Shown: in pieces, positions 10,201-64,000 of the stretch
How the letters are laid out: each line of letters begins with the position of its first letter
Numbering within the stretch: position 1 is the first letter of the stretch
NCBI GenBank assembly: GCA_032718475.1
Contig: JAUCBJ010008861.1
Coordinates: 8,088-72,087 of the forward strand
DNA length: 64,000 nt
Source: Nemertoderma westbladi
Lineage: Eukaryota; Animalia; Xenacoelomorpha
Direction of reading: 5' to 3'
Notes under the pieces: model-generated
The model's database searches: none
What the model saw: the letters and a program-made list of their open reading frames with translations, nothing else
Told to the model about the DNA's origin: nothing
Made by a program: the position numbers and the translations under genes

Positions 10201-10771
10201 ACTGCATGGCCTTGCAGGCTCCCATTGGGTTGACTCACTCCCGCTACTCCCTGCCTAACTACTTGGCCTTGCAGGCTCCCATTGCGGTGACTCACCCCTG
10301 CTACTCCCTGCCTAACTACGTGGCCTTGCAGGCTCTTGCTGGTCGGACCACCTGTATCCCCTACATTCGTATTAATAGCAACGTTATCAATAGTATTATT
10401 GTCCAAATTATTTAAATTATTTTGTTCGGAATTGGGGTTATTATTACCAGGTAAAATATTATTTCCTACAACAAAGGTTTGATTAGGGTTGTCTACAACG
10501 GTACTATTAATATTAATTCCTTCTAATGTGTTATTATTACCCCCCCCCGCCCCCTAAGGTTACACCAGTCCTGGGTCTGTCGTCCGGTGCCTGTAAGTGG
10601 GGTATTAACAAACATTTCCATTACTTCTGGCTCCTGGTAAACACTACCCGAACCAGCCTCACTCTCCGATAGTTCCCAACTTTGCCAGTTCTAACCAGCG
10701 CTTTTGCTTCGCCTGGTATTGCATAAGCCCCCTTAGCCAGGTATGCATATCATCCCGCATACGCTTTCCAG

Positions 10772-10802
<31 letters not shown>

Positions 10803-12709: not shown

Positions 12710-12940
12710 TGTTAAGTATATATTTTTGCCTTCCGGCTGAAATCTCGCAAAAATTCGAGATATAGTAATTTAATCGAATATTCGAATACATTTTTTGTCA
12801 AATAATTTGTTTTGTCTCAAATGTCAAATACGAAATTGGTTAATTCACAATAAAATAATATGAATTTAATTGTATAGTTACAGCAAAAACCAGTATAATA
12901 TTTAAACAAAATTGTAGCTCTATAGCTATTATACAGCATT

Positions 12941-17330: not shown

Positions 17331-17339
17331 AGCATTTAA

Positions 17340-25940: not shown

Positions 25941-25949
25941 GCATAAATC

Positions 25950-28912
25950 CTGCCTTTAAAATTACTTATTTACCAATTTATTCAAATAACTGTATTTTTA
26001 TCAGTTACGGTATTATTTCAATAATTTAGTAAGATTATTCCCCAGTAAAAGGGTTCTCACGCCATCTAGTGCTATCATGCCTGTATTGAACTTATTGCTA
26101 CATAGAACGTCCAACGAGCAAGTGATCTCTTATTGGCTTATAACAATTACATTCATCCCCCTAAAGTATATAATATTATAATACCTGTTGATTCATTACT
26201 GTTTGTTTGGAGTTCTGCAGGAGATTACTTCTCATGCAGACGTATTATACCCCTGGTTGATCGTAGCCAGCGGTATTTATTACATGTCTTATGTACCGAT
26301 AATTGAATTATAATTTGTACTCGTAATCTATTCTGTCGTTAAATATAATTTGTTCTCTCATCGCTGATTATACCGCCGATATTACGTAATCAAGGAGATT
26401 TTACACGCGCCAAATACAAGGTGGGTCTATGCAATTAAGTATCAGTGGTAATCTGGACAATTGTAATAGAAGCTTGTTGTTCTATCTCTGACTCGCTAAA
26501 TAATTAATATATGGCGATATACCAGACCATTAATATAAGAAAGGCTCTTATTATTAATTGTACCACGATTGAGAGTTGTCATAAATTAATTACGATATAA
26601 ATATTTGTATAATCGTACACAAAGGCAAGTCACTAAACGTTTCTCCTAAAGAGAAACACAAATACCGCCACAGGGTGTTGTCACACCCTCCCGGCATCGT
26701 ATCTCAGTGAAATACAATAGATAATCAAATACCATAACAAACCAACTTATGAGAGGAAGGCAAAGGGGAAGCTACGATCGATACAGTAAGTGGCCCTTGT
26801 TGACAGGTACGGTACACTAGCGCAATCCCGTTTATTGTGTCAGACCAGTGGTTTATACGTCATAGATGCATGAGTTCTCAGCTCCAACTATTATAAGCTC
26901 CAAATTACACAAATTGAGATTGAATGAACATAATTTACTAAAAGCGCTAACAGTAATAAATATTTTAACACCAGCCCTCCTCTCTTTTTGACTGTTTTGG
27001 TTTGCTTATTCATTATTAATGTGCTTATATTTCTCTAATTTCGACTGATCATCGTAATTGATAGGGATTTGGTGCATAAATATTTATCAATTTATTGTAA
27101 ACACTGATCCCGTTTATTGTTTTTGTTGCAAGAATTTGATAAACTTATTTACTGGTGTATGTATAACTGGAGAGTGTAAAGAAGTACTTTATATACCATT
27201 ATTTATAATTGGTGTATTTGTTGCTTTTTGCTTTCACGTATTTTTGAGTTTTGAACATTAACTGACAGCGCCCTACGTTTTGTTGGACCTTGTAAGGCGT
27301 AGACGTTCGTTTTCTACTATAAGCCGGGTACAATAGGTAAATTCCCACGGCAATAATTCTAGATTGGTCGGGTCAGATAATAGACGGAATCTCATATTTA
27401 CCGTAAAACATTTTGCTGCAAGTCTGCCTACTGTGAATTACTGGTATCTGATTGCTTGGCTTCATAGTGTATTAAGTAAATGCGTAATTATTCTGTAGGC
27501 CTCATTTTATCCCCTATTTCATTCCTATTTCCATTATTGGAACACATAAAGTTTTTATCTCCTTGTGGGAGGAAATATAACTTTATTTCTGACGAATTAC
27601 CTTTCATACTTGGTTTTATGAAATTGAGGCGCAGAAGTACGACTGGCCCATCAACAATATCCAAAACATAGTCTCTGGATGAATCGTGGGGCACCCCCGT
27701 TTCTTTAATCGAGTTTCGAACTGTTATTTATCGACTTACCCTCAGTACAGACTTATTAGTTCGATTTTTTCATTCGATCGGAACCATTTTCTGCGATCTT
27801 AGCCGATCAACTGTTCGTTATACCCGACATTAGGCGACGTAACTAAGAGTCCTAATTAGCGTATGCGGCAATAGCGGGGACGCATTCTACTAACTGTATC
27901 TATTGTTTTATTTGTGCTATTAACGTTTGCCTCTTGTCTGGTTTCGACTTCCAAAACGCTCGAAACATTTACAAACCCCCTGTTAAATTCCCACTGTCTT
28001 ACCGTCCTATTAATTTGTTTTATTTGCGTACTACCCAGAAGTAAACTCAAAGTTTACACCCCCATTTTGTAACATAGGTACTTTAGGTATAAGTAACGTT
28101 TTTGTACTAATTTTATAATTGTGCGGTTTTTTATTCCGATATTATAATTCCATAATAAATATAAAAGGAACATTTAACCGATATTCATACATATTATCGA
28201 GCTATTTAACATTTTCAGCTCATTATTGCCACTTCAGATCCATTATTTGCAACTTGGACCTCTGTCAGCGTAATATTTGAAAAACCAATATATTTCTTGG
28301 GTGGAATTATTTGTCGATTTACAGGCAATATCAGTCACATGACCAGTCCTCTCACAGAGTAACCCTGACAACCCGATAGGTTAACGTTATCTGCCTCAGT
28401 AGCTGTAGACAGGTATGCCACATTGCAGTGATAGCCATTGTACCTTAGCCCGCTTGCTCCAGCTTACACAACTGATTGGTGATTGGCTGTGTTACTCCAA
28501 GGCAAAGCATACCCTCTTCCTAGTAATGGTATACTACCTAATCCGGCCTCACCTTCATTGCTGCTTGGTTGTGTTAATCTCTGAACCAATTGGAGATCAT
28601 TATTGCTCTTAGTGATACTTTTGCCCGTAAAGAGTTAAATCCGATAATTCTCCCCATCTAGCGGTGAAATAAAATATCTATCACGACATTATTCTACACA
28701 AATAAATTGCCAGTCTCATTTTTATTATTTACCGGTGTTTGGCGATTTGTGAGATTGAATATAGTGCCGTGTTATTTATTTGGGTGCAATTGTAATAACT
28801 ATTTATAATATATTATTGCTGTTGCAATAAAAGGTCGATAATAAAGGGAAGGCATAACAATCACAAAAGGGTTTAATAAAATAAAATTTCGTTGAAATAA
28901 TATTTAACAAAA
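25950..28912 (+). other. Putative LTR/5' leader of a third BEL/Pao-like element
   Basis: About 3 kb of non-coding sequence upstream of a gag-like ATG, the same layout as 61166-63931; termini not identified. Confidence 0.3.
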
Positions 28913-39815: not shown

Positions 39816-39829
39816 TACATTGTTATTCA

Positions 39830-41955
39830 CATCTTCCCATATTCCCATCAACCTTCTCACCTTCCTACAATCCCATGAACCTTCCCATCTTCCCACCCAG
39901 CCACCATCCCACATTCCCATCCACATCCCTACATTCCCATCGTCCTACAATCCCATCCACCTTCCCACATTACCAATTTCCCACATTCCCATCCACCTTC
40001 CCATCTTCCTACATTACCATCCACCTACCCACATTCTCATCCATCTTACCATCTTCCCACATTCCCATCCACCTTCCTACATTCCCATCTTCCTATATTC
40101 CCATCCACTTTCCCACATTCCCATCTTCTTACATTCCCATCCACCTTCCCACATTCCCATCTTGCCACATTCCCATCTTCTTCATTCCCACCCACCTTCC
40201 CACATTCCCATCCACCTTCCCATCTCCCCACATTCCCATCCACCTTCCCACATTCCCACCTTCCTACATTCCCATCTTCCCACATTCCCATCAACCTTCC
40301 CATCTTCCCACATTCCCATCCAACTTCCCACACCCCCTTCTTCCTCATTCCCTCCCACCTTTCCACATTTCCATTTTCCCACATTCCCATCCACCTTCCC
40401 AAATTCTCATCTTCCCACATTCTCACCCACCTTCCCATCTTCCTACATTCCCATCCACCTTCCCATCTTCCTACATTCCCATCCACCTTCCCAAATTCCC
40501 ATCCACCTTCCCACATTCCCATCTTCCTACATTCCCATCCACCTTCTTATCTTCCCACATTCCCACCTTCCTACAATCCCACAAACCTTCCCACATTCCC
40601 ATCCACCTCCCCATAATCCCACATTCCCATCCACCTTCCCACATTCTCATCTTCCTACATTCCCATCCATCTTCCCACATTCCCGTCTTCCCACATTCCC
40701 ATCCACCTTCCCACATTCCCGCATTCCTCATTCCCACCCACCTTCCCACATTCCCATCCACCTTCCCATCCACCCTCCCACATTCCCATCTTCCTACATT
40801 CCCATCCACCTTCATATCTTCCCACATTCCCATCTTCCTACATTCCCACACACCTTCCCACATTCCCATCCACTTTCCCACATTCCCAGCTTCCCACATT
40901 CCCATCTTCCCACATTCCCATCTTACCACATTCCCATCTTCCTCATTCCCACCCACCTTCCCACATTCCCATCCACCTTCCCATCTCCCCACATCCCCAT
41001 CCACCTTCCCACATTCCCATCTTCCTACATTCCCATCTTCCCACATTCCCATCCACCTTCCCATCTTCCCACATTCCCATCCAACTTCCCACATTCCCAC
41101 CTTCCTCATTCCCTCCCACCTTTCCACATTCCCATCTTCCCACATTCCCATCCACCTTCCCCAATTCTCATCTTCCCACATTCCCATATTCCTACATTCC
41201 CAGCTTCCTACATTCCCATCACTTTCCCCCCATTCCCATCTTCCTACATTCCAATCCACCTTCCCGCATTCCCATCTTCCTCATTCCCATCCACCTACCC
41301 ACATTCCCATCATCCCACATTCCCATCTTGCCACATTCCCATCTTCCTCATTCCCACCCACCTTCCCACATTCCCATCCACCTTCCCATCTCCCCACACT
41401 CCCATCCACCTTCCCACATCCCCATCTTCCTACATTCCCATCTTCCCACATCCCCATCCACCTTCCCACATTCCCATCCAACTTCCCACATTCCCATCTT
41501 CCTCATTCCCTCCCACCTTTCCTCATTCCCACATTCCCATCCACCTTCCCACATTCCCATCTTCCTACATTCCCATCCACCTTCATATCTTCCCACATTC
41601 CCATCTTCCTACATTCCCTCACACCTTCCCACATTCCCATCCACCTCACCATATTCCCACATTCCCATCCACCTTCCCACATTCTCATCTTCCTACATTG
41701 CCATCCACATTCACATCTTCCCACATTCCCATCTTCCTACATTCCCTCACACCTTCCCACATTCCCATCCACCTCACCATATTCCCACATTCCCATCCAC
41801 CTTCCCACATTCTCATCTTCATACATTGCCATCCACATTCACATCTTCTCACATTCCCATCTTCCCACATTCCCATCTTCCCACATTCCCATCTTCCCAC
41901 ATTCCCATCTTCCCACATTCCCGTATTCCTCATTCCCATCCACCTTCCCACATTC
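39830..41955. repeat. Low-complexity (TTCCCACA/TTCCCATC/CACC)n array
   Basis: Plus strand almost G-free; long His/Pro ORFs in all frames. Confidence 0.95.
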
Positions 41956-42484
41956 ATTTTTTTTCGCTGGGAACGGGAATCCTGGGAAACTTCACATGGG
42001 CGAAAAATACAAAGAAACTTAAAAAAAAAATATTGATATGAACCTATTTGTTTTAAAAGATTGTAGGGCCTTATCGCCCCTGCCCCTTATCGCCCCCTGG
42101 GAACTTATCGCTCCTCAAATGGTCCTTTATCGCCCCTTTGGGAAGATATCGCCCCTGGGTCTTTATCGCCCCCGGGTCTTTATCGCCCCTGGTAACTTAT
42201 CCCCACTGTGACAATATTAATTTTGAATGGGAATATATATTGTTATTGCTATTGTTTATTAGTGTAATAAAAGTCTGTATCCATATACTGTACAGTACAG
42301 TAGTTAAATTACGAGACACATGACATACATTGAATTGCCTAAGTAGGCCTACAAATGTTATAAATAAAAACAATATTTTATAAAATATGTTTAAAATAGA
42401 GTATTTTAAAATCATTAATAATTAAACTGCATGTTTACTGGCATAGGTAAAATTTGAATAATAATGTAGGCCTACAAAGCTCTA

Positions 42485-42890: not shown

Positions 42891-44167
42891 GCTTCCAGAC
42901 TTTCAACCTTTACTGCCGCGCAAACCCCACAGAGGAAGTTTTGGTTTCAGAGATCAAGCCCATCGGCAATTGGTGTTTCAATTTCGGTCCAGGAACTCTG
43001 ACAATGGGAGCATTCAATCTTAGCTGTGGTCCATTCCCGTGGTTTCGGCTTCCTTTTCTTCGTCCCAATGACAGATTCTTCTGAAGACGTTCGATTCGCT
43101 TTCAGTTTATTGTTGGCATTTGTGTTTTGAAGTTGTATTCGAGTGGACAGTTGCGCCGGTTTCGAGGTAACCATACCGACCTGTGATAAGCGTTGGTTTT
43201 GTTGAGTGCCGGTATTCATCTTCTCTCACCTCTTCAATGTCAGATGTTGCAAATACTGATAACACGAATAACGGTATATATTTCAATACTTGTCAATAGT
43301 AATATATATAATATAGTTAACTATTTTATATCTGTACTGTTGAGCAAACTCTACATAAATTCCAACCTGTGTATCGCCGGTAGTGCTGTTGCTGTGCAAG
43401 TGCTGAAGTGCTAGTTGCCACCGGTCAGCCGGTACCGGTAGTAGGGTGGTACCTACGGTGCGCACTACAACGGCAGTACAGCAATACGGTGTACCGTGCC
43501 AATGACTGAATGATTAGCGGTAACTATCTAAACTATTATATTATTATTACCGGTGCCGGTACTGGGCTAATTAGGCCTAAACTATAATGAATGCCCCGGC
43601 AAGGGTTGCCGGGGCCATGTTTAATTAGATTACATGATATGGCATGGTACCGGCTGACCAGTATTGCAGTATTGACTGATTGCAGGATTCTCGATTCAGG
43701 GATTGAGTACAGCCTGACAGTACCGGTACACATGGTACATGCAGATTGGCAGACAGCCCCAATGTATTGCAAAATTTGTCAGAAACCCAGCTGATTTATC
43801 CTACAGTAATAATAATTTAACGCATTTTAAATTTGGATAAATAAATTTATTATAACTGCAATAACAGTTACACTGATGCTGCACGAAGGCCCCACGCAAA
43901 TTCTACTTGGAAAATTTTCAAACTTTTGTCAAACAACATGTGTACCAAGTTTGGATTGATTTCATCAAGGATTGGCCGAGTTATTAACGTTTAAAATAAA
44001 ATACTGAAAAAAAACGCGACAGAACAACAGGTTGATTAATGCTACCCCTACGCTAAGGCTCACTCACTTCGTGGCTCGTCCCACAGTAGTGCAAAAAATA
44101 CGTTAAAATAAATCGAGTTGATTAAAATAGTAACATTTAGGCTCAGTAAGCTAGCGAATGCCTGTAG

Positions 44168-45156
44168 GGTGATCTTCCACATTAAACCATTCCACTCTGT
44201 TTCCCAAATGAATGCCTGTTCACCACTATGGGAGATCTTCCACATTAGACCCTTCCACTCTGTTTCCCAAAGGAATGCCTGTTCACCACCATGGGTGATC
44301 TTCCACAGTAAACCCTTCCTCTCTGTTTCCTAAAGGAATGCCTGTTCACCACCATGGGCAATCTTTAACAGTAAACCCTTCCACTCTGTTTCCCAAAGGA
44401 AAGCCTGTTAACCACCATGCGTGATCTTCTACATTATACCCTTCCACTGTGTTTCCTAAAGGAATGCCTGTTCACCACCATGGGTGATCTTCCACATTAA
44501 ACCATTCCACTCTGTTTCCTAAAGGAATGTCTGTTCACCACCATGGGTGATCTTCCACATTAAACCCTTCCACTCTGTTTCCCAAAGGAATGCCTGTTCA
44601 CCACCATGGGTGATCTTCCACATTAAACCATTCCACTCTGTTTCCTAAAGGAATGCCTGTTCACCACCATGGGTGATCTTCCACAGTAAACCCTTCCACT
44701 CTGTTTCCTAAAGGAATGCTTGTTCTCCACAGTTGTTGATCTTCCACAATAAACCCTTCCACCCTGTTTCCTAAAGGAATGCTTGTTCTCCAAAGTTGGT
44801 GATCTTCCACAATAAACCCTTCCACCCTGTTTCCTAAAGGAATGCTTGTTTTCCACAGTTGGTGATCTTCCACAATAAACCCTTCCACCCTGTTTCCTAA
44901 AGGAATGCTTGTTCTCCACAGTTGGTGATCTTCCACAATAAACCCTTTCACCCTGTTTCCTAAAGGAATGGCTCTTCTCCACATTTGGTGATCTTCCACA
45001 GAAACCCTTCCACCCTGTTTCCTAAAGGAATGGCTGTTCTCCACAGTTGGTGATCTTCCACAATAAACCCTTCCACCCTGTTTCCTAAAGGAATGGCTCT
45101 TCTCCACAGTTGGTGATCTTCCACAATAAACCCTTCCACCCTGTTTCCTAAAGGAA
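44168..45156. repeat. 61-bp minisatellite
   Basis: Unit ggtgatcttccacaataaacccttccaccctgtttcctaaaggaatg..., about 16 copies. Confidence 0.92.
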
Positions 45157-45275
45157 ACTTAGGTTTTGGATTAACCGGAACGACGTTTTACGTGGCGTAT
45201 TCATAATTACGGGATTAATAAAGGCAAGGAAGGGTCTTTCACCACGTGGATATATAAAAAATGAAGTTAATTATT

Positions 45276-48570: not shown

Positions 48571-48926
48571 CTATGCGAAGTTTCGAAACTGTGCGAGTAA
48601 CTGTTGATACATCTATGTGGAGATGTGTGATATGTGGAGATGTGTGATAGCACGCCAACGCATCTTATGCCGATGTAGTAATATGGGTATTGAAATAATA
48701 TTAAATCAATGTACACTCTTAAAGCTGCAGCAAAAAAATGTAGCTAATTTCCTAGGTTACATATCTCGTCATATAAAATAATAATATTATTTTTAAGAAC
48801 ATTAATTTTACTACTTTGCAAAAATTCAATTAAAAAATAACCAGACATATACATTGTGGAATAAACTATTTCAGAAGCCTACAACAGCCATGCCATGGAT
48901 TGTATTTATGTTATTAGATTAGTGCA

Positions 48927-50846
48927 TAAATTGGAGAGATACGCCTATTCCTACTATCGGAAGAGACGGTAACAATACCTGCAATATCCTACTGTAAAGC
49001 TTGTAAATCAAATCATAAATCCGACCTTCTCACCAAAACAGTAAACCCCAAGTAAGCGAATATATTGCAGTATCGATCTCTTTTAACCGGTGAGGCAGAA
49101 AACAGTCTACGAGCAGACAAACTTCGATAAAACAAAATCCCGCGCAGCGAATCCTAAAATCAGGCTGACTCACTGACGGACTAAGAGGCTCGTATACTTT
49201 GCCGCGGTGTGATTTATATGGTTGGGCAAAGAGACGCTAGCTAGGTACAGAGCAGATTTAGAGATGTCTAACTAGCGGGCAAAGTGCAGTAAGGACGAAA
49301 GTTAATTTTATATATTTTGAGGTGTAAATAATTTCTAACGCGCGTGTGTTAATTCTGAACAGTCAAAGCAGTTTTGCTCCTTCACATATATAATTACTGG
49401 GTACGGTGTGCATTTTACGAATATTCTAATTTTATAACTTGTAGGTCCAATACTCACGAATGATAAGGTTCCTTCCCCTCTTGCGTATCTCCAGGACTCA
49501 AATTCAGGCATAAGGTTAATACTACGCCCAGAATTCGGCAATTTTAGGTACCAGGTCCCTGATACTAAGAAGAGATGTGTTAGTTTACTACTGTAGGCGT
49601 ACGGGTACTAATAGCTATCCTGGTTCCTATCTAGAATTTTAGTCACCCAGGTAGTCCGGGTAACTTCCTATTAGGGCGTTGGCGGGGACACGGTAGATGT
49701 TAGTATATCCCTGATAGCCTCAATTTATTTGCGCCTAGCGTAAACTGCCCTACCGCCTGAACGGTACAATCCCAATTCAGGTGAAAACACAGCAACCCCC
49801 TAGCCTACAAGTTCTGATGTAATAGACACGGTCGTACTGCAAATAGTCGCACACACACCTGTACTTAGCAAGAGTTAAGCGTACAGTTTGCTGCACCCTA
49901 ACCAATGTGTATGCCTTGTACCGGTGTGCCTACGTCCTATCTGCGTACTAGTATCTGCTCTCTCTCCCTCTCCCCCCCGTAGGAATATGAAGGTCTACTG
50001 CGGTTTTTCCTGAATCAAGACAGTACAGTCCCTATGATGTAATTTTGGGCTTACAGCGTGTCACTACGTCTACCTTTTGATCTTTTTGGTCTTACACTTA
50101 GGTAGCAAGGATCGAACGCTGTCTAACCTTTCAGGCGATGGGCGAATAACACTAGATGGTATTGCGGGTTGTCTCTCGTCTACATTCCCGTGATGTTCCC
50201 GTTCATTGCTGCGGCCCGATCTCTAGCCGGCCATCCTGTCCCTGAGTTTGTTCACCGTAGTGAAACCATATTAAAACAGATAGAAAGGCTGAGAGATGTG
50301 ACTAGTATTTCTGACTTTATTACAAAACATATAATAACTATTATACAATAAACAATGTAATCTGAAATAAGACAGAAAGTGAATGATGGAAATTGATGTG
50401 AAGTGAATAACTAATGAACAAATCGCACCTTTATATACTAAATTTGTGCCGCAATCAATCGAGAAAATTCTCGATTGTTCTATAGATTCTAACAAGGTTT
50501 TAAAGATAGCTATTGGTCCAGCTAATATATAACTTGCACGACATTGGTTACAATCAAATAACTACAGCCTTATTGGTACAGACAAATGCAATTAATTTGT
50601 AGCGGTTAATTTAAATGAGTTGAAATTCTACACAAAAAATAATTCGCACTTACTAGGATTCGAACTCGATACCTACTACACATATAATTTCCAACGCTCT
50701 ACCAACTGAGCTACTGAACCACTTGACCGATAGATGCATAATAGATAGAACCAATACTAATGAGAACTCAAAGCAATCTTTACAAAGTTAATTCGAATAA
50801 AATAAAATTTTGAAAATCCACGGCATTTAGGGAATATAATTCTATA
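48927..50846 (-). repeat. 3' LTR of family B
   Basis: No difference from 62012-63931 spotted by eye; identical small ORFs at the same offset; preceded on the minus strand by a short purine run GGAGCGG. Confidence 0.95.
50634..50720 (-). ncRNA. tRNA-derived Pol III-like cassette in the 3' LTR (A box, B box, T6)
   Basis: GGTTCAGTAGCTCAGTTGGTAGAGCG...GAGTTCGAATCCT...TTTTTT; D arm intact, acceptor and anticodon stems do not pair. Confidence 0.65.
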
Positions 50847-51745: not shown

Positions 51746-52945
51746 TTATCGTTTAGTTGATCGAGCCCTGCCGCGTCCTCGAAAACTGCGCACAGGTGAC
51801 TTTGCTCGCGATATGGGACTTGTGGGGCGAGTCACTGGTTTACTTGGGACGTTGAGAGACGGTGCAACTATTTCCTCACAAATTCGTCTATTTGGCATCC
51901 CAAAACCTCGACCGATTCCTCGTGACCGATCAGTCGTCACTACAGTTGGTAGAACGTCTGGGAACTCGCGAAAGGCGGACGACGCAGACCCAAGAGTAGC
52001 TTGCGCCCCCTGTTGATCAGCTGGTGTATGTCCCGATCCTCCTACTGGTTCTCTTGGAAGTGATACCGTATCCCGAGTAACTCGAATAGTCGGCTCAACT
52101 CCCTTGCGTTCTTCTACATTAATAATTTTCTTCAATTGTTGGCCCACTTTCTGGACCCGTATGATCCTACCCTGCCCGTCCTCCCGAGGGTGACGTGCAG
52201 ACGGCGCAGCCGGAGTGGCTGGTATATTCGTCGCCTCTAGGACCTCTTCTTCCTCGAATACGCTCGCTCGTATACGTTTGTGGTAAAACGCAGCTCGGTA
52301 CGCCCATGCGACGGTTAACCAAGCTCCTTTATTCCGCTTTTCGGTTCGGAAACGATCAAATTCACCATACGTGATACGATTTACGACTTTCTGAAAATTC
52401 CACGTGTTTTTGTTATCTGGGTGAATCTGTAACAGATACTCGCGCACCACTCGGAATCCGCTGTCGTGGGGCAAAATATCGACAACCTCGATAAGTTCGT
52501 CATATTGGGGCATAGCGGAGATGTATCCTTCCGACATCATCGTCTGGGGATTTACCGCCCAAAATCCGAGATGCGCTCTCATCGGAAACCGTCTTCTTTG
52601 TGCTGATACATGTTCATCGGCTAAATCTTCCCACTCATCAAATAACTTCCTCACGAGTTTTACAGATTCGTGTTCATAAGGTATGTCCCTTAGTTGGCAT
52701 TCAGATGCTCGATGTCCCTTTATATTGCAATAAGTACATTGAGCCATAAATCTCCAGCAAGTATAAAAGGTATGAGACCCTTGATCCCCACACCATCCAC
52801 AGATTAGCTGAGTCGTAGTAATGTGCTTTCCACTGCACTTTGCCATATGATGTCCAGCGACGCCACATTTACTACACATCGTATTGGCAGGGTACCACAC
52901 TCGTTCGTATATAAGATCTCCAATCGGTCGAGCGCTTCCTCCCAT
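51746..52945 (-). CDS. Accessory triple CCHC zinc-knuckle protein (frame open upstream to ~53120)
   Basis: CSKCGVAGHHMAKC, CGWCGDQGSHTFYTC, CTYCNIKGHRASEC; basic C-terminal tail; 399 aa uninterrupted. Confidence 0.8.
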   Translation of the reverse strand: MGGSARPIGDLIYERVWYPANTMCSKCGVAGHHMAKCSGKHITTTQLICGWCGDQGSHTFYTCWRFMAQCTYCNIKGHRASECQLRDIPYEHESVKLVRKLFDEWEDLADEHVSAQRRRFPMRAHLGFWAVNPQTMMSEGYISAMPQYDELIEVVDILPHDSGFRVVREYLLQIHPDNKNTWNFQKVVNRITYGEFDRFRTEKRNKGAWLTVAWAYRAAFYHKRIRASVFEEEEVLEATNIPATPAAPSARHPREDGQGRIIRVQKVGQQLKKIINVEERKGVEPTIRVTRDTVSLPREPVGGSGHTPADQQGAQATLGSASSAFREFPDVLPTVVTTDRSRGIGRGFGMPNRRICEEIVAPSLNVPSKPVTRPTSPISRAKSPVRSFRGRGRARSTKR

Positions 52946-53072
52946 ACTATAATCGTAATCATCTGGGTCTATGGGTTGGTAGGTTTCTGAAGGTTGTATA
53001 CAAACTATAGCATCTGTTGCTTCAAGTTGTCGAATCTCCGTCTGAGATTTCTTCGGGAGGTTCCTTTCTATT

Positions 53073-53447
53073 TCAAGAAGTTCCTCTAAAGGATCGTCGG
53101 CAATCGTAGTAGTTACTTCGAATCATCACCAAGGTGACCGATAGGCGCACGCGTCTGCCGTGATTCATCCGTAATCTCCACGATACGTTCTCCTTCATAG
53201 GGTAACAATGTAAACATAGATGGTCTTTCGATAAGAGATCCCGCACAGCGAAGATACACGTCTCGAAATATACTAAATCCTGCTCGAGTAAAGGCATTGC
53301 TGTCTTTGCGAGCTTCGCTGTACTTTCTGATAATTCCTTTATACCAAATATAGTGTAGTCTTTTGCTCCAAATCGTTCGAATGAAGCTGCCGCCTCCTCT
53401 TGGATATCATATCCCCATCTCGGCTCTCCTTGTATCCCTTTCTCCAT
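53073..53447 (-). CDS. Accessory ORF N-terminal part, function unknown
   Basis: WGx10FxRx3KxY motif shared with ORF 4820-5434; overlaps the open upstream frame of the zinc-knuckle ORF. Confidence 0.6.
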   Translation of the reverse strand: MEKGIQGEPRWGYDIQEEAAASFERFGAKDYTIFGIKELSESTAKLAKTAMPLLEQDLVYFETCIFAVRDLLSKDHLCLHCYPMKENVSWRLRMNHGRRVRLSVTLVMIRSNYYDCRRSFRGTS

Positions 53448-54109: not shown

Positions 54110-57100
54110 TTATTTACTAGTATTAGGTGGAGATTTGTAGTCTCCGGACTCGTTACGAGTCTCTTCAAGAAGTACGAGACGTTGAGTCGGTCTGTCTACT
54201 GTACGACCGTCAATTGTTCGTACCGTCACAGTTCTTGTCACTCCATCCATAGATGGATGTGTGGCTAAAATGACACCTGTTATCCAGAAGCGTCTTTTTA
54301 GATTCACTTCTGCCAACAGCACGTGATCTCCCGGCTTTAATGCGCGGGTGTTATTGTACCAGTTTGTTCTGGCAGAAATAGAGGGCAAATAATGGTTTTG
54401 CCATATTTCCCAGAATTTGTTAGCCAGTAGTTGCGTGATTTTCCACGCTTTTCTTCCGTAACTATCGCTTTCTAGTGGAATAGAAATAGGTGTCAAAGTT
54501 GTCGGTGCCTGCATTAGCAGGTGTGCCGGTGTTAAAGCAAACTGGGATTGTTTGTCATCGGGTACTAATACTATTGGTCTAGTATTTAGTATTGCCTCGA
54601 TTTCAACAAACAATGTTGTCAGTTGGTCGTCTGTTAATATGTGGTTTACTGGAATGACCTTTGCCATGGCTGTCTTTATAGATCTAATCAATCTCTCCCA
54701 GACTCCGCCTCTCCAAGGACTATCTGGAGGATTAAACTTCCAAACAATCTTGTGAGGTTGTAGTTCGTTCGAGATTTGATCATGATCTAATTTCTTAAAG
54801 GCTCTAGCAATCTCATTCCGAGCACCAACGAAGTTTGTCCCTTGGTCTGAGTACAAGCATTTTACTAGTCCGCGTCTAGCGATAAATCGCCGCAGTGCTA
54901 GTATAAACGCGTTGGTGGAAAGATCCATCACACGTTCAATGTGAACTGCCCTACTGGACATACATGTGAAAATCAGTCCCCAGCGTTTTACTAGTATACG
55001 TCCACGTTTCGTATGTATGGGACCAAAGCAATCAATTCCAGTCTCTGTAAAAGGTGGTCTGAATGCTTGAAGTCGTGCTTGTGGTAGTTCACTCATTTCT
55101 TGGGTACCTATTCTAGAATGTACCTTTTTACAAATAATACACGTACGTGTCACTGAACTCAATGCTTTACTGGGTCTAATTAATACAAATCTAGTACGTA
55201 AGTAGGAAAGACAGTGGTGTCTTCCAGCGTGTTTCAGATGTAAATGTGCGTCCAGTATCATTGCACGTTGTAGTTCGTGGTGTTGCGGTATTATTATTGG
55301 GTACCTAAAGTTTGTGTTAAAGTCAATGTTTTGAAGCCGAGATTTATGACAAATTAAGCCATTATAAATAATCGGACTCCAACTCAGTATCGGTGACGAC
55401 TTGATTGGTTGACCTTGATTTATAGATGTGAATTCGCGCGCGAAATATCGCAGTTGGTAATGGCGAATTAATTTAATCTCACACCTGTCAATCTCAGCCA
55501 ATGTAAGTCGACGTGTAAAGTCACGTTTGCCTTTAACGTATTGTACGAAACGTACAATCCACGCTAATTTTCGGCAAGCGTTCGACCAAGAGTCTGTTAA
55601 GTTTACAATTCGGTCGACGTAAGTATTTGTGACGTCATCAGGTAAGTCAATGGAGATTTTGGAAGGTTTTGAATTACTAGAAGGGCCCACGGGTCCGCCG
55701 GTAAGTATTCCCTTGTTGACTGTTGATCCGTCCGGGTCTACAAGTAATTTGTCCTTCTTCGTCTTCTTACCTTGATTGTCGGTACTTTGTAAGTCGATCG
55801 TTAATGGTGGTTTGAACTCTATGGGGTCAGCAGGTTTTGGTAAACTTAATTTTCTGCCGACATTAATCCCAGGTCTCACCGTAGGTTGTAGGTTCGGTAT
55901 GTCTCTTGAGCGCAAAGTAACACCTGTATTTACATTAGCGTAGGTACTACCCACATCTGTAATACATGAGGTTTCACCGTGCTTATGGTTGCTCAAGTGT
56001 GTCAAAATTGGTAGTTTGTCAATACAAGGCCGCTCCAATAGGGAAACTGCGGCTTTATTGTTAGTCAATACATTACTAGTGTCTAGTCGACTGTCTAGTA
56101 GTGTGTCTGGCGATACGTCTGGTAACGTATCTGGTTGTTTGTCAATAGAAGGCCGCTCCAATAGGGAAACTGCGGCTTTATTGTTAGTCAATACATTACT
56201 AGTGTCTAGTCGACTGTCTAGTAGTGTGTCTGGCGATACGTCTGGTAACGTATCTGGTTGTTTGTCAATAGAAGGCCGCTCCAATAGGGAAACTGCGGCT
56301 TTACTGTTTGTCAGTGCGTTACTAACGTCTGGTGGAACATTTTGTGATATGTCTGGCAAAATGTCTGGTTGACTGTCTAGTAACGTGTCTGGTTGACCGT
56401 CTGGCGATATGTCTGGTCGACCGTCTGGCGATATGTCTGGTGTAGAAAGGCTCGCAAGTCTTCCTCTCTTGACCTTTGAAGTTATATCTTTCCATTTCGC
56501 CTTCGGTTTCTTCTTGAGTTTAGTTGCCGTCGTCCTTTTCTTTGTATCGACGGGCATTGTTGAGGTTATTGGGGTAGGTAGACTCGCAAGCCTATCATCT
56601 GTCGTCGATGGAATCTCTAGCTGACTCGTCTTCCCCCCTAGTTCTAAACTCACCTTGTGGGTTAGCTGCTCCTTGTGACTTATCATACTAGTTACACGTC
56701 TGTCATGTTTTGTCGACTGTAGTGTAGTATGGTTCACGTCGTGTGAAAAGGAATGGATTGAATTTGTAGTTAATAAACTACATGTACTCTGTACATCGTC
56801 TTCCTCGTCACTTACGTCTAGTGTGCGCACAGGCGCTCGAGTATACCACCCTATCGGCGTTCTGCAGGCGTATGCGTTTCCTGCTACAACTGCCGATGGT
56901 CTGGTTTCCCACACCTGATGTAGGTTGAATTGGTCCGTCCCGATCAGCATTGCTACCGATCTATAATTGGCAGGACATTCGGGTACACCAAGGTGTCTGA
57001 AATACTTACGGTCCTCTAGAGATTGTGCCGGCACTGGACCTAGTAGGTTACTAAAGTCCTTCGTGGCCGCAAAGGTTAGATCTCTAAAGGGCAACAAAGA

Positions 57101-60100
57101 CCTCTCCCTCTCGCTGTGTTGCGATCTTGGAAGAAGAGAGTCTAAGTCCAACTTAACTCGTGTCACTGGTATTGCACGCTGTCCGTGCATACTACTTACT
57201 GTATAACTGACGTGCTTACCTTGTCTAAGATCTGTTACGACGTCAGCGATCTTTTCATCCACGTAACTGTGAGATGAGGCTGAATCTAGAATCGCGTAGA
57301 TCCTCTTACTCCCTTTTGTGCCAGTAACTTTAATCGGGATTACACTGAATCCCTTCAGTTGGTCAGTGGTCAGGAGCGCGATTGACGGTTGTTCGTCTCC
57401 ATTTGAATATTCGTCGTCTTCTGATTCTTCGTCCGACGATCCGGATTGTTCTGAAAAGCAATCCTCTATATGGGTCACGAAAGTCGGAGTCGTTTTCGAT
57501 TCCCGTTTTCGGTAAGCCGCATCACATCTCGCTGCTGCTTCCGGGTGTTCCCTGGCGAAGCGTTTCGTCGGCGTGTGGCTGTCTGTGTGGAGCAGACCGT
57601 CGTGGTTGCGTCCACAGGATGGACAAGTGTCAGTATTTGGGCAATCCTTGCGCACGTGTCCGTGTCGCGTACACCGCCAACAAGAGTCCAGTGGCCGTAT
57701 CTGCAGCCGTCGTTCTTCTGAGTTCAACTCGCGAAATTGTCGACAACCTCGTAACTTGTGACCAATATACCGCTTACCCAAATGTTCGCAGTATTGGCAT
57801 CCGTTGAAGTCGGCGCTGAGTTGCTGTCTCGTCTGTTTCGTTCCAATGGGCGCAGATACTCTATTACCGTCTGAGAATTGTCGTGATTCCGTCGGTGTGG
57901 CGTAAGTGGCCGTCTTTGTGGATGTTGTCTGGGGTTTTTGTCGGTTAGAGGATGGCAGTGTGATCCCTTCTGCCACGATGTGCTGGTCGGTATAGTTAGA
58001 TCGAGTCTCTACTACCGCCTCCCTGGATATTAAAAGGTACACATCTTCTAATTTTAGGAATCCTCCTCGCTCCTCTCGCTGATATTCGACCTTCCTCCAC
58101 TCCCGACGAAGTCGATGGTGGAGTCGTCCTATTATCTTTAATAGGACTGTAGGCGTATTCCCGTAATCAAGTTGTCCAATTGATCTTAAGGTAGTGATAG
58201 CGTTCTTAATCTCGTCAGCCAGTTTTAGTAAGTCGACGGGTTTAGTGATAGCCCCTCCCTTACAGAGTTCTTCTATTACTGACCTGGCCATACTCACTGT
58301 ACCTCCGTATATCGAAGTCAAACGATCGTACGCTAGTTCGAAAGCGTCCGGTACACCAACGAAAGTCTCCGCCAAACGTTTAGGTTCTCCTGACAACGTT
58401 TGGAGCAAGTAATTGAACTTCTCTCGTGACGTAAAGGCGCACACGGCGATCTGGGATTCAATATAGTCTACGAAGGTATGCCAGTGTTTTGAGCTACCGG
58501 AGAACTTCGGTGGTTGTTGTACCGGCAATCCCTGTCTGGCTGCGAATTTCGCTATCTCCTCGGCAACGTTCAGAGTTTCGCGTCCTTGGTTGGTAACCTG
58601 GTTGATGTTCTCCCTTCTTGGCGCTTTTCCCTGATACGATGTGGGGTTTGAAGGTACCGGTCTTTGTGGTCCCTTCGGGTGTCTATTGTGTTCGAATTCG
58701 GAATTTCTCGAACTGTCGGTGTAACCTTCCTCCAGACGTTCCTCGATCTGAGCCAACTTGTTGACAACTGGTCGCAGAATGTCGGCGAACTGTTGTGTAC
58801 TAATTGCGTCCGTTGGTTGTAACGCCTTCTGTGTTGGTGTATTCTGTGGAGGATTATCTGCAAAAGAGTTGTCTGAACGCTCGCGTTTATATTCATCGGC
58901 CGCCCCCGTTCTAAATACCTCGCGTTTCGGGTAATCCGATTCGCTCGAAGTACTACTATCATCTGGATATGGTGGTCGACGTGCTCGCGTCCGTTGCGTC
59001 GTACTAATTCTAACGGTTCGTTTCGGAACATCGTCTCGCTTTCGTTGTTCGGTAGGCTCACAAGTCTTCCTCGAAGTCGTAGATTGCGATGTAAACTGGT
59101 TGAACGGTCGCGTCTCTGTTCTCCGTTGTTCGGTAGGCTCACAAGTCTTCCTCGAAGTCGTAGATTGCGATGTAAATTGGTTGAACGGTCGCGTCTCTGT
59201 TCTCCGTTGTTCGGTAGGCTCACAAGTCTTCCTCGAAGTCGTAGATTGCGATGTAAATTGGTTGAATGGTCGCGTCTCCACTGTTCTCCGTTGTTCGGTA
59301 GGCTCACAAGTCTTCCTCGAAGTCGTAGATTGCGATGTAAATTGGTTGAACGGTGGGCGAATGACAGCATTTGAATCCAAAGGCCTTGTTGGTCGAAACG
59401 TCATTGGGTAATCGTAGTGCGTAACGGGTTTTGGCGTCAAAGGTGGACTCACCTGTTTAGTCGTCAGTAGCGCAGGTCCGGTCAATAAACTACTACGATC
59501 TGTAATCGGTGGGTTACTTACCTTGACTCTCGGAATAGGCGACGACGTTGCTCTTGGCGGTATAAACTCGTTCGGAATAACAAACCTGTGTTCCGTCGCA
59601 CCATGGATAGGAGAAATATCACTACTACCCGCAATCGAAACAGGTTCCTTAGTCGTAACCGGTGCAAACATATGAGTTACCTGTGGGAATCGTTGACACA
59701 CGTCTTTTACTAATTGCCGTTCCCGTCCGGGTGCTCCTACGCTTCCTTCCTTCTTCCGTTCCTGAATTTGGCGATGTCTTACCTCTAACTGGTCCAAATC
59801 ATGTCCGTCACGAGATCTCATCGATCGATCGCGGGCCTTTTGATCCAGATCTTCCTCAGCGTTCGCTAATTCTCTCGCCTTCTTCTCAAGTTCGAAATGA
59901 AGTTTAGCTGTCTTCTCTCGTTGTTCCGTTTGTCGTTGTTGCGCCTCAAATTCTGCTTGTCGTATGGCGGATTGAGCTTTTATTTGCCGTGTTTTCATTT
60001 CGGCCCGTGCTTCCGAAACTAACCTGTCTCGTTCTAATTCCGCCGCTGCCGCTGCCGCTTGTCGCTCTGACTCGGCCGCTGCCGCTGCCGCTTGTCGCTC

Positions 60101-61165
60101 TGACTCGGCCGCTGCCGCTGCCGCTTGTCGCTCTGACTCGGCCGCTGCCGCTGCCGCTTGTCGGGCAATGTCTACCTCTAACCTTTCTACTTCAGCTGCT
60201 TCTAATTCAGCTTGTTCCTGTAGATGAGAGATTCTTGCTATATTCGCAACGCGTAGCTTCTCTTCTTCTACTGCTGCCTGCATCACTAGAAGTTGAGCTT
60301 GTTCCTCCATTTCTCGTCGTTGTCGGTAGAATTCTTGCTGTTGTCGAGCAACTTCTGACGTAACCATACTTCCCTCGCAGATTTCGCTACGAATACTTAC
60401 CAGTGATTGATCCAATATTCCCGGTGCCGATTCGATTTGTGCGAGCGAAGTTTCCCTCGTAGCCTCCGGCACGGTTTCCCAATCTCCGACGTCCTCGCCG
60501 CACATGCGTAAGTGATCCGTCAGGTGTTTCAATTGTCCATCCAGTCGGTACAGTTCCTGTTCTTCCTCGGGCTGTAATAATTCGTCCGAAACTGACTCAC
60601 CTAACAACTGGTCCGCTTGTTCCTGTTGTATCTGTCTAATCGTCGACTTAAACTGAATCAGTTTCTCTCTAGTGATCATTAGTTTCTCGAGGATTCTAAG
60701 TTGAGTATCCATGTCCTGTCTCTGTCTAGCTAGATCTTGTAGGCCCACTAGATTATCTACGGACTTATATACTTTACTCTGTACTCTAACCTGGAGGGTG
60801 TAGAACTCGAATCGAGACATCGGAGCGGTCAACCCGTCTAATATGCGTTGGCCTTCTCCAATGCTCCTGGTTATATGCGCCATGTAACCTCCGACGCTTC
60901 TAACCACACTTTCTGTACTTCCTGCTGAACTTACCATTTCCGTTTCCCTGTATCTAGGTTGCGGAACAGTTAGAAAGTCCTCGGTCCTGCCGTCGCCTCG
61001 TACTACGGCATCCGGTACTCCCGTTGGATGTACTGGTGACGCACACGGTGTAGGTTCGGTAGGCTCGCGAGTCTTCCCCTGTTGTTCTTCCGCTGCTGAC
61101 TTATCCGCGTCACATGAGTCATAGTCGGTTTGTGTGTTCTTCGTATAGTCTTGTTTGTCACTCAT
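54110..61165 (-). CDS. BEL/Pao Gag-protease-integrase polyprotein (2351 aa) without RT/RNase H
   Basis: KFSGSSKHWHTF...YLLQTLSGEP (DUF1759-like), CWRCTRHGHVRKDC, protease AILDSASSHSY, integrase HHCC and D-D-E (GIDCFGP, SDQGTNF, WERLIR); no YxDD RT motif between PR and IN. Confidence 0.95.
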   Translation of the reverse strand: MSDKQDYTKNTQTDYDSCDADKSAAEEQQGKTREPTEPTPCASPVHPTGVPDAVVRGDGRTEDFLTVPQPRYRETEMVSSAGSTESVVRSVGGYMAHITRSIGEGQRILDGLTAPMSRFEFYTLQVRVQSKVYKSVDNLVGLQDLARQRQDMDTQLRILEKLMITREKLIQFKSTIRQIQQEQADQLLGESVSDELLQPEEEQELYRLDGQLKHLTDHLRMCGEDVGDWETVPEATRETSLAQIESAPGILDQSLVSIRSEICEGSMVTSEVARQQQEFYRQRREMEEQAQLLVMQAAVEEEKLRVANIARISHLQEQAELEAAEVERLEVDIARQAAAAAAESERQAAAAAAESERQAAAAAAESERQAAAAAAELERDRLVSEARAEMKTRQIKAQSAIRQAEFEAQQRQTEQREKTAKLHFELEKKARELANAEEDLDQKARDRSMRSRDGHDLDQLEVRHRQIQERKKEGSVGAPGRERQLVKDVCQRFPQVTHMFAPVTTKEPVSIAGSSDISPIHGATEHRFVIPNEFIPPRATSSPIPRVKVSNPPITDRSSLLTGPALLTTKQVSPPLTPKPVTHYDYPMTFRPTRPLDSNAVIRPPFNQFTSQSTTSRKTCEPTEQRRTVETRPFNQFTSQSTTSRKTCEPTEQRRTETRPFNQFTSQSTTSRKTCEPTEQRRTETRPFNQFTSQSTTSRKTCEPTEQRKRDDVPKRTVRISTTQRTRARRPPYPDDSSTSSESDYPKREVFRTGAADEYKRERSDNSFADNPPQNTPTQKALQPTDAISTQQFADILRPVVNKLAQIEERLEEGYTDSSRNSEFEHNRHPKGPQRPVPSNPTSYQGKAPRRENINQVTNQGRETLNVAEEIAKFAARQGLPVQQPPKFSGSSKHWHTFVDYIESQIAVCAFTSREKFNYLLQTLSGEPKRLAETFVGVPDAFELAYDRLTSIYGGTVSMARSVIEELCKGGAITKPVDLLKLADEIKNAITTLRSIGQLDYGNTPTVLLKIIGRLHHRLRREWRKVEYQREERGGFLKLEDVYLLISREAVVETRSNYTDQHIVAEGITLPSSNRQKPQTTSTKTATYATPTESRQFSDGNRVSAPIGTKQTRQQLSADFNGCQYCEHLGKRYIGHKLRGCRQFRELNSEERRLQIRPLDSCWRCTRHGHVRKDCPNTDTCPSCGRNHDGLLHTDSHTPTKRFAREHPEAAARCDAAYRKRESKTTPTFVTHIEDCFSEQSGSSDEESEDDEYSNGDEQPSIALLTTDQLKGFSVIPIKVTGTKGSKRIYAILDSASSHSYVDEKIADVVTDLRQGKHVSYTVSSMHGQRAIPVTRVKLDLDSLLPRSQHSERERSLLPFRDLTFAATKDFSNLLGPVPAQSLEDRKYFRHLGVPECPANYRSVAMLIGTDQFNLHQVWETRPSAVVAGNAYACRTPIGWYTRAPVRTLDVSDEEDDVQSTCSLLTTNSIHSFSHDVNHTTLQSTKHDRRVTSMISHKEQLTHKVSLELGGKTSQLEIPSTTDDRLASLPTPITSTMPVDTKKRTTATKLKKKPKAKWKDITSKVKRGRLASLSTPDISPDGRPDISPDGQPDTLLDSQPDILPDISQNVPPDVSNALTNSKAAVSLLERPSIDKQPDTLPDVSPDTLLDSRLDTSNVLTNNKAAVSLLERPSIDKQPDTLPDVSPDTLLDSRLDTSNVLTNNKAAVSLLERPCIDKLPILTHLSNHKHGETSCITDVGSTYANVNTGVTLRSRDIPNLQPTVRPGINVGRKLSLPKPADPIEFKPPLTIDLQSTDNQGKKTKKDKLLVDPDGSTVNKGILTGGPVGPSSNSKPSKISIDLPDDVTNTYVDRIVNLTDSWSNACRKLAWIVRFVQYVKGKRDFTRRLTLAEIDRCEIKLIRHYQLRYFAREFTSINQGQPIKSSPILSWSPIIYNGLICHKSRLQNIDFNTNFRYPIIIPQHHELQRAMILDAHLHLKHAGRHHCLSYLRTRFVLIRPSKALSSVTRTCIICKKVHSRIGTQEMSELPQARLQAFRPPFTETGIDCFGPIHTKRGRILVKRWGLIFTCMSSRAVHIERVMDLSTNAFILALRRFIARRGLVKCLYSDQGTNFVGARNEIARAFKKLDHDQISNELQPHKIVWKFNPPDSPWRGGVWERLIRSIKTAMAKVIPVNHILTDDQLTTLFVEIEAILNTRPIVLVPDDKQSQFALTPAHLLMQAPTTLTPISIPLESDSYGRKAWKITQLLANKFWEIWQNHYLPSISARTNWYNNTRALKPGDHVLLAEVNLKRRFWITGVILATHPSMDGVTRTVTVRTIDGRTVDRPTQRLVLLEETRNESGDYKSPPNTSK

Positions 61166-61999
61166 TTCGGTAGTTGTAAGTCAAGTAAAGTGAGTGTCAA
61201 AGTATCGAGTTTACCGTATTTATATAAAACGGTACTAATTACAGTCATATAAAATTAGCCTACCGGCCGATTTTATAGCAGATGGATAAAATTAGCCTAA
61301 AACGGCCAATTTTACAGCAAATAAATGTCACGGAATAAGTATATAATAAAATTAGCCTAGCGGCCAATTTTACAACAAATAAATCGGATAACGATATGCG
61401 TTATCAAAAGGTAAATTAAATACAATAATACGGACTAATTCAGCAATGAACAAAGAAATCATACGGAATGCATAAATACTTGAGACAGTGGAACCCACAA
61501 TAATTTTAACTAATACGGTAATGCCTAACTTATTTATGCAACTTTTCGAACTCACCCACTCCAATAATTCTCCAGAAAAACAGATTCCCAGATACAAACC
61601 GGACGTGAACCTTTCCGTTTTTAACGTTGCGGACGAAACGCGATTTTCCCAACCAAAGTTGTTGAGTTATCTATCTCCCAAACTTGCTAAACACGGTCTT
61701 GCTCCCGTTACAGTCTAGAAATGAGTTCTGAATCCTGAAAAAACAAAAGAGTTAGGTTTTACTTTACGAAAATTTTGTACCGGTACAATATGGTATTTAA
61801 ACCCTTTTAAAACACCGGTATTCAATTCCAAAGATATTTTACACGCGGTTCAAATCAAATTTTATTTCAAAAAATTAGCACTTAGCTAATCAAATACAAA
61901 TTTTTACCTCAAAATACAAAATTTTCAAATAACTTTAGTCCTACCGAACCGTAGTTCAGTAAAACATATTCCTACTAAATTAGGAAATATGTTAAATAA

Positions 62000-62011
62000 T
62001 CATATTCCTAC
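62000..62011 (-). promoter_or_regulatory. Non-tRNA PBS of family B (GTAGGAATATGA), complementary to LTR segment 63064-63075
   Basis: Abuts the 5' LTR end; no TGG; 12-nt perfect reverse complement within the LTR. Confidence 0.7.
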
Positions 62012-63931
62012 TAAATTGGAGAGATACGCCTATTCCTACTATCGGAAGAGACGGTAACAATACCTGCAATATCCTACTGTAAAGCTTGTAAATCAAATCA
62101 TAAATCCGACCTTCTCACCAAAACAGTAAACCCCAAGTAAGCGAATATATTGCAGTATCGATCTCTTTTAACCGGTGAGGCAGAAAACAGTCTACGAGCA
62201 GACAAACTTCGATAAAACAAAATCCCGCGCAGCGAATCCTAAAATCAGGCTGACTCACTGACGGACTAAGAGGCTCGTATACTTTGCCGCGGTGTGATTT
62301 ATATGGTTGGGCAAAGAGACGCTAGCTAGGTACAGAGCAGATTTAGAGATGTCTAACTAGCGGGCAAAGTGCAGTAAGGACGAAAGTTAATTTTATATAT
62401 TTTGAGGTGTAAATAATTTCTAACGCGCGTGTGTTAATTCTGAACAGTCAAAGCAGTTTTGCTCCTTCACATATATAATTACTGGGTACGGTGTGCATTT
62501 TACGAATATTCTAATTTTATAACTTGTAGGTCCAATACTCACGAATGATAAGGTTCCTTCCCCTCTTGCGTATCTCCAGGACTCAAATTCAGGCATAAGG
62601 TTAATACTACGCCCAGAATTCGGCAATTTTAGGTACCAGGTCCCTGATACTAAGAAGAGATGTGTTAGTTTACTACTGTAGGCGTACGGGTACTAATAGC
62701 TATCCTGGTTCCTATCTAGAATTTTAGTCACCCAGGTAGTCCGGGTAACTTCCTATTAGGGCGTTGGCGGGGACACGGTAGATGTTAGTATATCCCTGAT
62801 AGCCTCAATTTATTTGCGCCTAGCGTAAACTGCCCTACCGCCTGAACGGTACAATCCCAATTCAGGTGAAAACACAGCAACCCCCTAGCCTACAAGTTCT
62901 GATGTAATAGACACGGTCGTACTGCAAATAGTCGCACACACACCTGTACTTAGCAAGAGTTAAGCGTACAGTTTGCTGCACCCTAACCAATGTGTATGCC
63001 TTGTACCGGTGTGCCTACGTCCTATCTGCGTACTAGTATCTGCTCTCTCTCCCTCTCCCCCCCGTAGGAATATGAAGGTCTACTGCGGTTTTTCCTGAAT
63101 CAAGACAGTACAGTCCCTATGATGTAATTTTGGGCTTACAGCGTGTCACTACGTCTACCTTTTGATCTTTTTGGTCTTACACTTAGGTAGCAAGGATCGA
63201 ACGCTGTCTAACCTTTCAGGCGATGGGCGAATAACACTAGATGGTATTGCGGGTTGTCTCTCGTCTACATTCCCGTGATGTTCCCGTTCATTGCTGCGGC
63301 CCGATCTCTAGCCGGCCATCCTGTCCCTGAGTTTGTTCACCGTAGTGAAACCATATTAAAACAGATAGAAAGGCTGAGAGATGTGACTAGTATTTCTGAC
63401 TTTATTACAAAACATATAATAACTATTATACAATAAACAATGTAATCTGAAATAAGACAGAAAGTGAATGATGGAAATTGATGTGAAGTGAATAACTAAT
63501 GAACAAATCGCACCTTTATATACTAAATTTGTGCCGCAATCAATCGAGAAAATTCTCGATTGTTCTATAGATTCTAACAAGGTTTTAAAGATAGCTATTG
63601 GTCCAGCTAATATATAACTTGCACGACATTGGTTACAATCAAATAACTACAGCCTTATTGGTACAGACAAATGCAATTAATTTGTAGCGGTTAATTTAAA
63701 TGAGTTGAAATTCTACACAAAAAATAATTCGCACTTACTAGGATTCGAACTCGATACCTACTACACATATAATTTCCAACGCTCTACCAACTGAGCTACT
63801 GAACCACTTGACCGATAGATGCATAATAGATAGAACCAATACTAATGAGAACTCAAAGCAATCTTTACAAAGTTAATTCGAATAAAATAAAATTTTGAAA
63901 ATCCACGGCATTTAGGGAATATAATTCTATA
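62012..63931 (-). repeat. 5' LTR of family B
   Basis: Direct repeat of 48927-50846; sense termini TATAGA...AATTTA. Confidence 0.95.
63719..63805 (-). ncRNA. tRNA-derived Pol III-like cassette in the 5' LTR
   Basis: Identical to 50634-50720. Confidence 0.65.
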
Positions 63932-64000
63932 GTGCAATATATTAGTGTTTATTACGTACATAATTACTTATAATATATATTTAGTGTGACGGCAAGAAAT

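Follow-up and report, generated by a model that had tools for sequence, protein, structure and literature searches.

A non-autonomous BEL/Pao element of Nemertoderma westbladi that likely primes its minus-strand DNA with a stretch of its own LTR

Mature tRNAs carry a terminal CCA, and hence need TGG in the primer-binding site. Among BEL-type elements, Cer7 of Caenorhabditis elegans encodes its own tRNA-like primer. According to the ICTV profile of the Belpaoviridae, host tRNA-Arg or tRNA-Gly pairs with an 18-nt site, the LTRs measure 0.2-1.2 kb and the genomes 4.2-10 kb, and replication is poorly understood (PMC8742986); the statement in the initial annotation of this DNA that BEL/Pao elements are generally described as tRNA-primed agrees with this profile. 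The annotation had also drawn on Tf1 of Schizosaccharomyces pombe, correctly so, as the available part of the Tf1 source describes the RNA's initial 11 bases as the primer, which is freed by an RNase H cut (PMC7175516). The available portions of other sources cover self-priming by Tj1 (PMC4600332), a “pretzel” structure (PMC10085805), and the start sites of Tf2 (PMC5341516). Outside this group, PMC6317226, in its available part, distinguishes three primer types and gives a screening rule for self-priming (at least 10 nt of complement, 0-5 nt from the LTR end), by which self-priming was predicted for the plant TAR (Houba, Osr-1) Ty1/copia and Tcn1 lineages. In fungal GalEa elements, a hairpin stands in place of the primer-binding site, with a mechanism given as unknown in the available text (PMC5445492).

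The window analyzed here (64,000 nt of contig JAUCBJ010008861.1 of N. westbladi) contains a BEL/Pao LTR element of 15,005 bp on the minus strand, and the putative priming signature sits at its 5' end. The 5' LTR (62012-63931, minus strand) is 1920 bp long and 100% identical to the 3' LTR (48927-50846, minus strand), which has a short purine-rich stretch in front of it. A 5-bp target-site duplication (63932-63936 and 48922-48926) flanks the element, and together with the identical LTRs it indicates a recent insertion; in the contigs of run X4, a different insertion begins at 63931. The LTRs end in TA...TA instead of TG...CA, and those of a distant relative (L015, 5186-5890) in TA...AA; in both cases, the 5-bp target duplication is clean.

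An open frame of 2356 codons (54110-61180, minus strand) encodes a BEL/Pao gag (DUF1759), zinc knuckles, a protease-like motif, repeats, and an integrase (H2C2, DUF5641), with DUF1759 and DUF5641 scoring above their cut-offs in a profile search. The best integrase matches are 32-41% identical, and all of the 120 listed contain DUF5641, most of them also PF05380. No chromodomain, as found in Ty3/gypsy chromoviruses, was matched in the polyprotein, and its domains are those of BEL/Pao. Neither a reverse transcriptase (RT) nor a Pao RNase H family was matched by profiles anywhere in the element, so that the protease-RT-RNase H-integrase order of a Belpaoviridae pol is not present; the initial annotation had left this out. 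Likewise, the YVDD and DAS motifs are absent here and present in both relatives checked (n = 2), and four full-length relatives align with the gag-protease and integrase regions, none of them across 56579-55630. About 1.3 kb of in-frame repeats (55507-56825) stand where RT and RNase H would be. Judged by its coding sequence, the element is a non-autonomous BEL/Pao derivative and not a full member, and must move in trans, since it encodes no RT or RNase H. That the frame has been kept open despite this loss suggests selection on a gag-protease-integrase protein. Thus, the element resembles the Belpaoviridae in its DUF1759 gag, zinc knuckles, protease before integrase, DUF5641 tail, LTRs and 5-bp target duplication, but departs from their profile in its 1.92-kb LTRs, its length of 15.0 kb, and its lack of a TGG site and of RT and RNase H. 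Behind pol lies an accessory frame of 458 codons (51746-53122, minus strand) with a weak zinc-knuckle match and no database relatives (all Atlas leads below 0.9), a distant copy of which (26% identity) is found at 3958-4311 within another element of the window. A search of IMG/VR retrieved no relative of the element.

Directly behind the 5' LTR, the primer-binding site (62000-62011, minus strand) begins with GT. The initial annotation had pointed to this 12-nt site and to its exact complement in the LTR, the predicted self-primer (63064-63075, minus strand; ending in AC), and we confirmed both. We also confirmed that there is no TGG at 0-5 nt from the LTR end, and hence no 18-nt site for a host tRNA 3' end as in the Belpaoviridae. 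The LTR limit at 62012 and the target duplication place the start of the primer-binding site at the first base behind the LTR, which bears out the proposed geometry, with the 3' end of the would-be primer pairing with exactly this base. By the screening rule above, the complement (12 nt at offset 0) predicts self-priming. Elsewhere in the window, an exact match is found only in the corresponding segment of the 3' LTR (49979-49990). In dinucleotide shuffles of the LTR, a complement of at least 12 nt was never found at offset 0 (0/5000) and was found in 4/5000 when offsets of 0-5 were allowed, while an 11-nt complement was found in 1/5000 and 22/5000, respectively. In the real element, 4 of 13084 positions, the primer-binding site itself included, have a complement of at least 12 nt in the 1920 nt upstream.

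The primer-binding site is repeated 36 nt downstream (61965-61975, minus strand), which the initial annotation had omitted as well; this second copy has an 11-nt complement and is part of a 36-nt duplication. Between the two copies lies an inverted imperfect copy (61980-61992, minus strand), which could form a local hairpin with either of them. These hairpins (-6.8 and -8.4 kcal/mol) are weaker than the 12-bp primer/site duplex (-15.6 kcal/mol; -13.7 for the 11-bp version). Five GTAGGA-type repeats and an inverted copy crowd the LTR end. Site-like repeats at 62077 and 62039 hint that the LTR may have grown by successive duplication of the primer-binding site.

ARAGORN and Rfam identified no tRNA in the LTR (two weak, unrelated Rfam rows were returned). 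In U3 of both LTRs, a tRNA-type A box (63798) and B box (63750) are followed by a T run (63798-63721, minus strand); this stretch was called by neither program, is not complementary to the primer-binding site, and may derive from the capture of a Pol III or SINE piece. With a self-encoded primer, this BEL-type element would be similar to Cer7, but the predicted primer is a plain LTR segment instead of a tRNA-like unit.

We compared the element with 36 other BEL/Pao loci, 35 of which (L002-L036) lie inside bacterial and archaeal genome records (MAG), most likely as animal host contamination. Seven loci were too short, nine had no direct repeat, four had only contig-end overlaps and four had satellite-like repeats, leaving 12/36 with a usable LTR pair; L026 was dropped (integrase identical to that of L027), and 11 were tested. 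In five elements from four families (L014, L027, L031, L033, and L035), a TGG site follows the LTR at 0-5 nt, and self-pairing with the LTR reaches 3-5 nt only, which was equalled by 110-394 of 400 shuffles. In contrast, all six relatives of the non-tRNA type (L001, L006, L007, L010, L015, and L021; integrase identity 33-37%) pair with their own LTRs over 11-15 nt, one contiguously and five across a predicted GT-AG intron. The difference (6/6 vs. 0/5) gives p = 0.002 in Fisher's test, or 0.008 for 5 vs. 4, with kin that are not independent.

The contiguous complement, in L001, is 15 nt long and flush with the LTR end (0/20000 shuffles). The other complements measure 14 nt across a 318-nt intron in L015, 11 nt across 76 nt in L021, and 11 nt across 338 nt at offset 1 in L007 (0/400 shuffles each), all three with GTRAG donors and pyrimidine-rich acceptors, and 11 nt across 697 nt in L010, whose donor was the sole match of those scanned. 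In L006, which comes from the same record set as L007, an 11-nt complement was found across 1022 nt, at an LTR end that the signature itself had served to select out of 42 candidates. These splice sites are consensus matches; in each of the five splice-joint relatives, 7-8 nt of the primer come from behind the acceptor. L021 has a TGG at offset 1 of its primer-binding site.

Counting the window element, the duplex terminates at or one base from the LTR end in 7/7 self-pairing elements, and a final AC in the primer goes together with an initial GT in the site in 6/7 (the window element and five of the six relatives). Beyond these first bases, the site letters differ among all seven, tracking each element's own LTR. 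The initial annotation had suggested looking for such covariation, and among distant relatives it is indeed seen, the letters differing yet pairing (for the window element's own family, see below). A blind scan recovered the sites of L006, L007, and L021, each as the sole match in the upstream region, and returned no match on four circular contigs. It also returned an 11-nt complement across a 399-nt predicted intron at a candidate LTR end in L019 (about 200-630). Unanchored inverted matches of at least 11 nt were rejected as evidence, because repeat-rich flanks yield many. In an integrase tree of 22 rows (27/49 rows were left out, and L034 and L036 were left out of both sets), the seven self-pairing and the five TGG rows are split by one change, at a weak support of 57/64 and with the window element on a long branch.

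A TATA-like box lies some 450 nt upstream of the primer segment, at 63522, and is followed about 25-31 nt downstream by initiator-like bases (predicted promoter by pattern match and sequence, 63484-63522, minus strand), and no further TATA-like site was found by pattern between it and 63075. The start at 63075-63072 predicted in the initial annotation thus has no TATA box in front of it. Such a start appears doubtful, and the primer is probably internal in the transcript instead of forming its first bases. The annotation took a start far from 63075 as a refutation; it would not be one, because the primer may be an internal segment. In the relatives, a TATA-like site lies more than 200 nt before the donor in L006 and L007 and 56 nt before the primer in L001, while L015 and L021 have none upstream by pattern and may have a tiny first exon. 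A sigma-70 promoter scan was set aside as irrelevant for an animal promoter. An AATAAA upstream of the primer (63401-63406, minus strand) would be a problem for self-priming if transcripts end there, although a weak donor-like site at 63408, which overlaps it, could possibly mask this poly(A) signal; the signal that the model requires is the first AATAAA downstream of the primer (62809-62814, minus strand). A splice joint was also sought within the window element's own primer, but none was found (the best reached 6 nt). The distance from primer to site is 1052 nt, vs. 45-194 nt in the relatives.

The primer/site duplex is dominant in 2/4 whole-region folds, with a pair probability of 0.82-1.0 in the two that begin at 63075 and of 0 in two longer ones; it vanishes if the RNA begins at 63489 or runs on to 61700. 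A purine tract directly behind the primer (63043-63063, minus strand) can pair with 62018-62024. This second helix was striking at first, but was rejected when 69/982 LTR windows were found to pair as well or better. As for a three-duplex “pretzel,” the second helix can form here, and the relatives show nothing consistent.

Variation within the family was read from the contigs of runs X1, X3, and X4, which cannot link primer and site. The family is large (5639 contigs of X1 on the LTR region). Joints and loose ends in the contigs of all three runs reveal copies without the 36-nt duplication, in which the complement is 11 nt, so that pairing across the family is probably over 11 nt. A variant at 63072 makes up 20% of the depth in X1, 24% in X3, and 94% in X4, and disrupts the ninth pair from the primer 3' end unless 62003 also changes. 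This matching change had been predicted beforehand, and none was found among the 40 of 227 rows listed, and at an X4 joint with 17 shared letters one contig seems to retain the primer-binding site unaltered. The covariation evidence within the family therefore leans slightly against perfect pairing. Run X5, guessed to be RNA, does not cover the primer and was not used. In X4, one contig has 94 differences at 62183-62883, and T>C changes (A>G in the sense strand) are listed at 108 places of the run, a pattern like that of ADAR hyper-editing. X4 was guessed to be DNA, but it may be RNA, since the flanking repeat is nearly absent there.

With this evidence, we consider it likely that the element primes its minus-strand DNA with its own LTR RNA segment instead of a tRNA, as the initial annotation had proposed. 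The comparison of relatives upholds the proposal, while the Tf1-like details that accompanied it are unsupported. A strict Tf1-type version, with a start at 63075-63072 and the first 11-12 RNA bases as primer, shares the self-priming claim and forms a small part of the probability given to it; we regard it as rather unlikely, and as less likely than an internal primer. The segment 63075-63064 does begin with initiator-like bases, 11 nt is the primer length of Tf1 (available part of PMC7175516), an RNA begun at 63075 forms the duplex with high probability in two folds, and a transcript with such a start would not contain the 5' LTR copy of the AATAAA at 63406. These points are countered by the lack of a TATA-like site between 63522 and the segment, by the relatives, in which the primer spans a splice joint or lies about 25 nt behind the predicted start, and by the unsupported flanking helices. 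Another reading takes as the true LTR only the first 579 bp (63931-63353), which hold a TATA, initiator-like bases, and an AATAAA, and are followed by an ordinary TGG site at 63352, the remainder being an extra repeat. However, LTR identity continues for another 1341 bp to 62012, where the target duplication lies, and contig depth in X1 and X3 is similar across the 1920 bp apart from a dip at 63348-63515 (depth cannot rank LTR parts, and was not used to do so). For this copy we regard the short-LTR reading as contradicted and very improbable; at most, the 579-bp portion records an older, shorter LTR.

Alternatively, the pairing may be a structural element that acts in packaging, dimerization, or as a translation or splicing switch, with priming by something else, such as a half-tRNA or some other small RNA of the host. 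Half-tRNA primers, which need no TGG, occur in Ty1/copia (available part of PMC6317226), and hairpins replace the site in GalEa elements (available part of PMC5445492). We nevertheless consider this unlikely, as a conserved host RNA would not permit the site letters to vary among seven elements with their own LTRs, and only priming requires the duplex to lie at or one base from the LTR end in all of them. The match could also be a relic or by-product of local duplications, fold-back, or an old inverted repeat, serving no function today in an element that is defective and copied passively. This would accord with the GTAGGA-type repeats and inverted copy at the LTR end, in which family copies differ, with the possibly uncompensated common variant at 63072, and with the many unanchored inverted matches in repeat-rich flanks. 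However, the identical LTRs and target duplication show recent reverse transcription that ended exactly at this site, no alternative primer site is offered at the LTR end, and the relatives share the anchored geometry, which makes a relic improbable.

Under self-priming with an internal primer, transcription would start near 63490 and the transcript would pass the AATAAA at 63406, reaching that at 62814. Because the primer is internal, only a cut behind it would be needed: a nuclease, probably the RNase H of a helper element, would cut behind the final AC at 63064 and free the 3' end. The helper RT would then copy about 1050 nt and jump via an R region ending near the AATAAA at 62814. The primer could be supplied by the same RNA, a second packaged RNA, or a short LTR transcript. 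From the sequence comparison, the contiguous primer of the window element is probably the intron-less form of the primer that its relatives appear to assemble by splicing, and it is difficult to account for a site complementary to a splice joint unless it pairs with spliced RNA or was copied from it. A broader reading, which we regard as evenly balanced, is that an old and broad BEL/Pao branch primes with an internal AC-ending RNA piece, usually assembled by the spliceosome from two LTR exons, and that the window element is an intron-less, RT-less descendant with a ready-made primer and a copied leader stretched to about 1 kb.

The element is similar to Tf1/Tf2 and Tj1 of the Tf1/sushi group in that it has no tRNA site, and 11-12 nt behind the LTR pair flush with its own LTR (available parts of PMC7175516, PMC4600332, and PMC10085805). 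Unlike these Ty3/gypsy chromoviruses, it belongs to another superfamily, its primer is probably not the first RNA bases, the two helices that flank the Tf1 duplex are unsupported, primer and site are about 1 kb apart, the copy lacks RT and RNase H, and its relatives would build the primer across a predicted intron. It shares with TAR and Tcn1 a prediction of self-priming by the same sequence rule, but those belong to other superfamilies and hosts, and a splice-built primer is not mentioned for them in the available text (PMC6317226). We found no publication that describes self-priming, or primers built by splicing, for BEL/Pao elements, nor is BEL/Pao self-priming mentioned in the available portions of PMC3601003, PMC6934838, PMC3286476, PMC554778, and PMC3118150; subscription journals, Repbase, and GyDB lay outside the search, and prior notice is possible.

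If true, our proposal would extend self-priming to a third LTR superfamily, in animals, and in a form unlike that of Tf1, with a primer that lies inside the RNA and is often assembled across an intron. It would account for BEL/Pao elements overlooked by an annotation based on tRNAs, and may imply independence from tRNA supply and from control by tRNA fragments. If primers are built by the spliceosome, splicing would gate retrotransposition, and a further cut would free the primer. The LTR end, the GT start, and the own-LTR complement together offer a direct sequence test.

Elsewhere in the window, 568-11882 and 20375-25955 are occupied by decayed BEL/Pao pieces, nested and from at least two other families, with no readable LTR pair for the window element's family among them. 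A related fragment at 23016-25955 belongs to a close family (74% in the protease region) and retains the start of an RT at 23016-23426. In addition, the regions 12940-17331, 30568 to about 35000, 39818-42040, and 44041-45159 contain a pair of inverted repeats of 99% identity, with arms of roughly 870 bp, as well as tandem arrays whose periods are close to 33, 8-36, and 63 nt.
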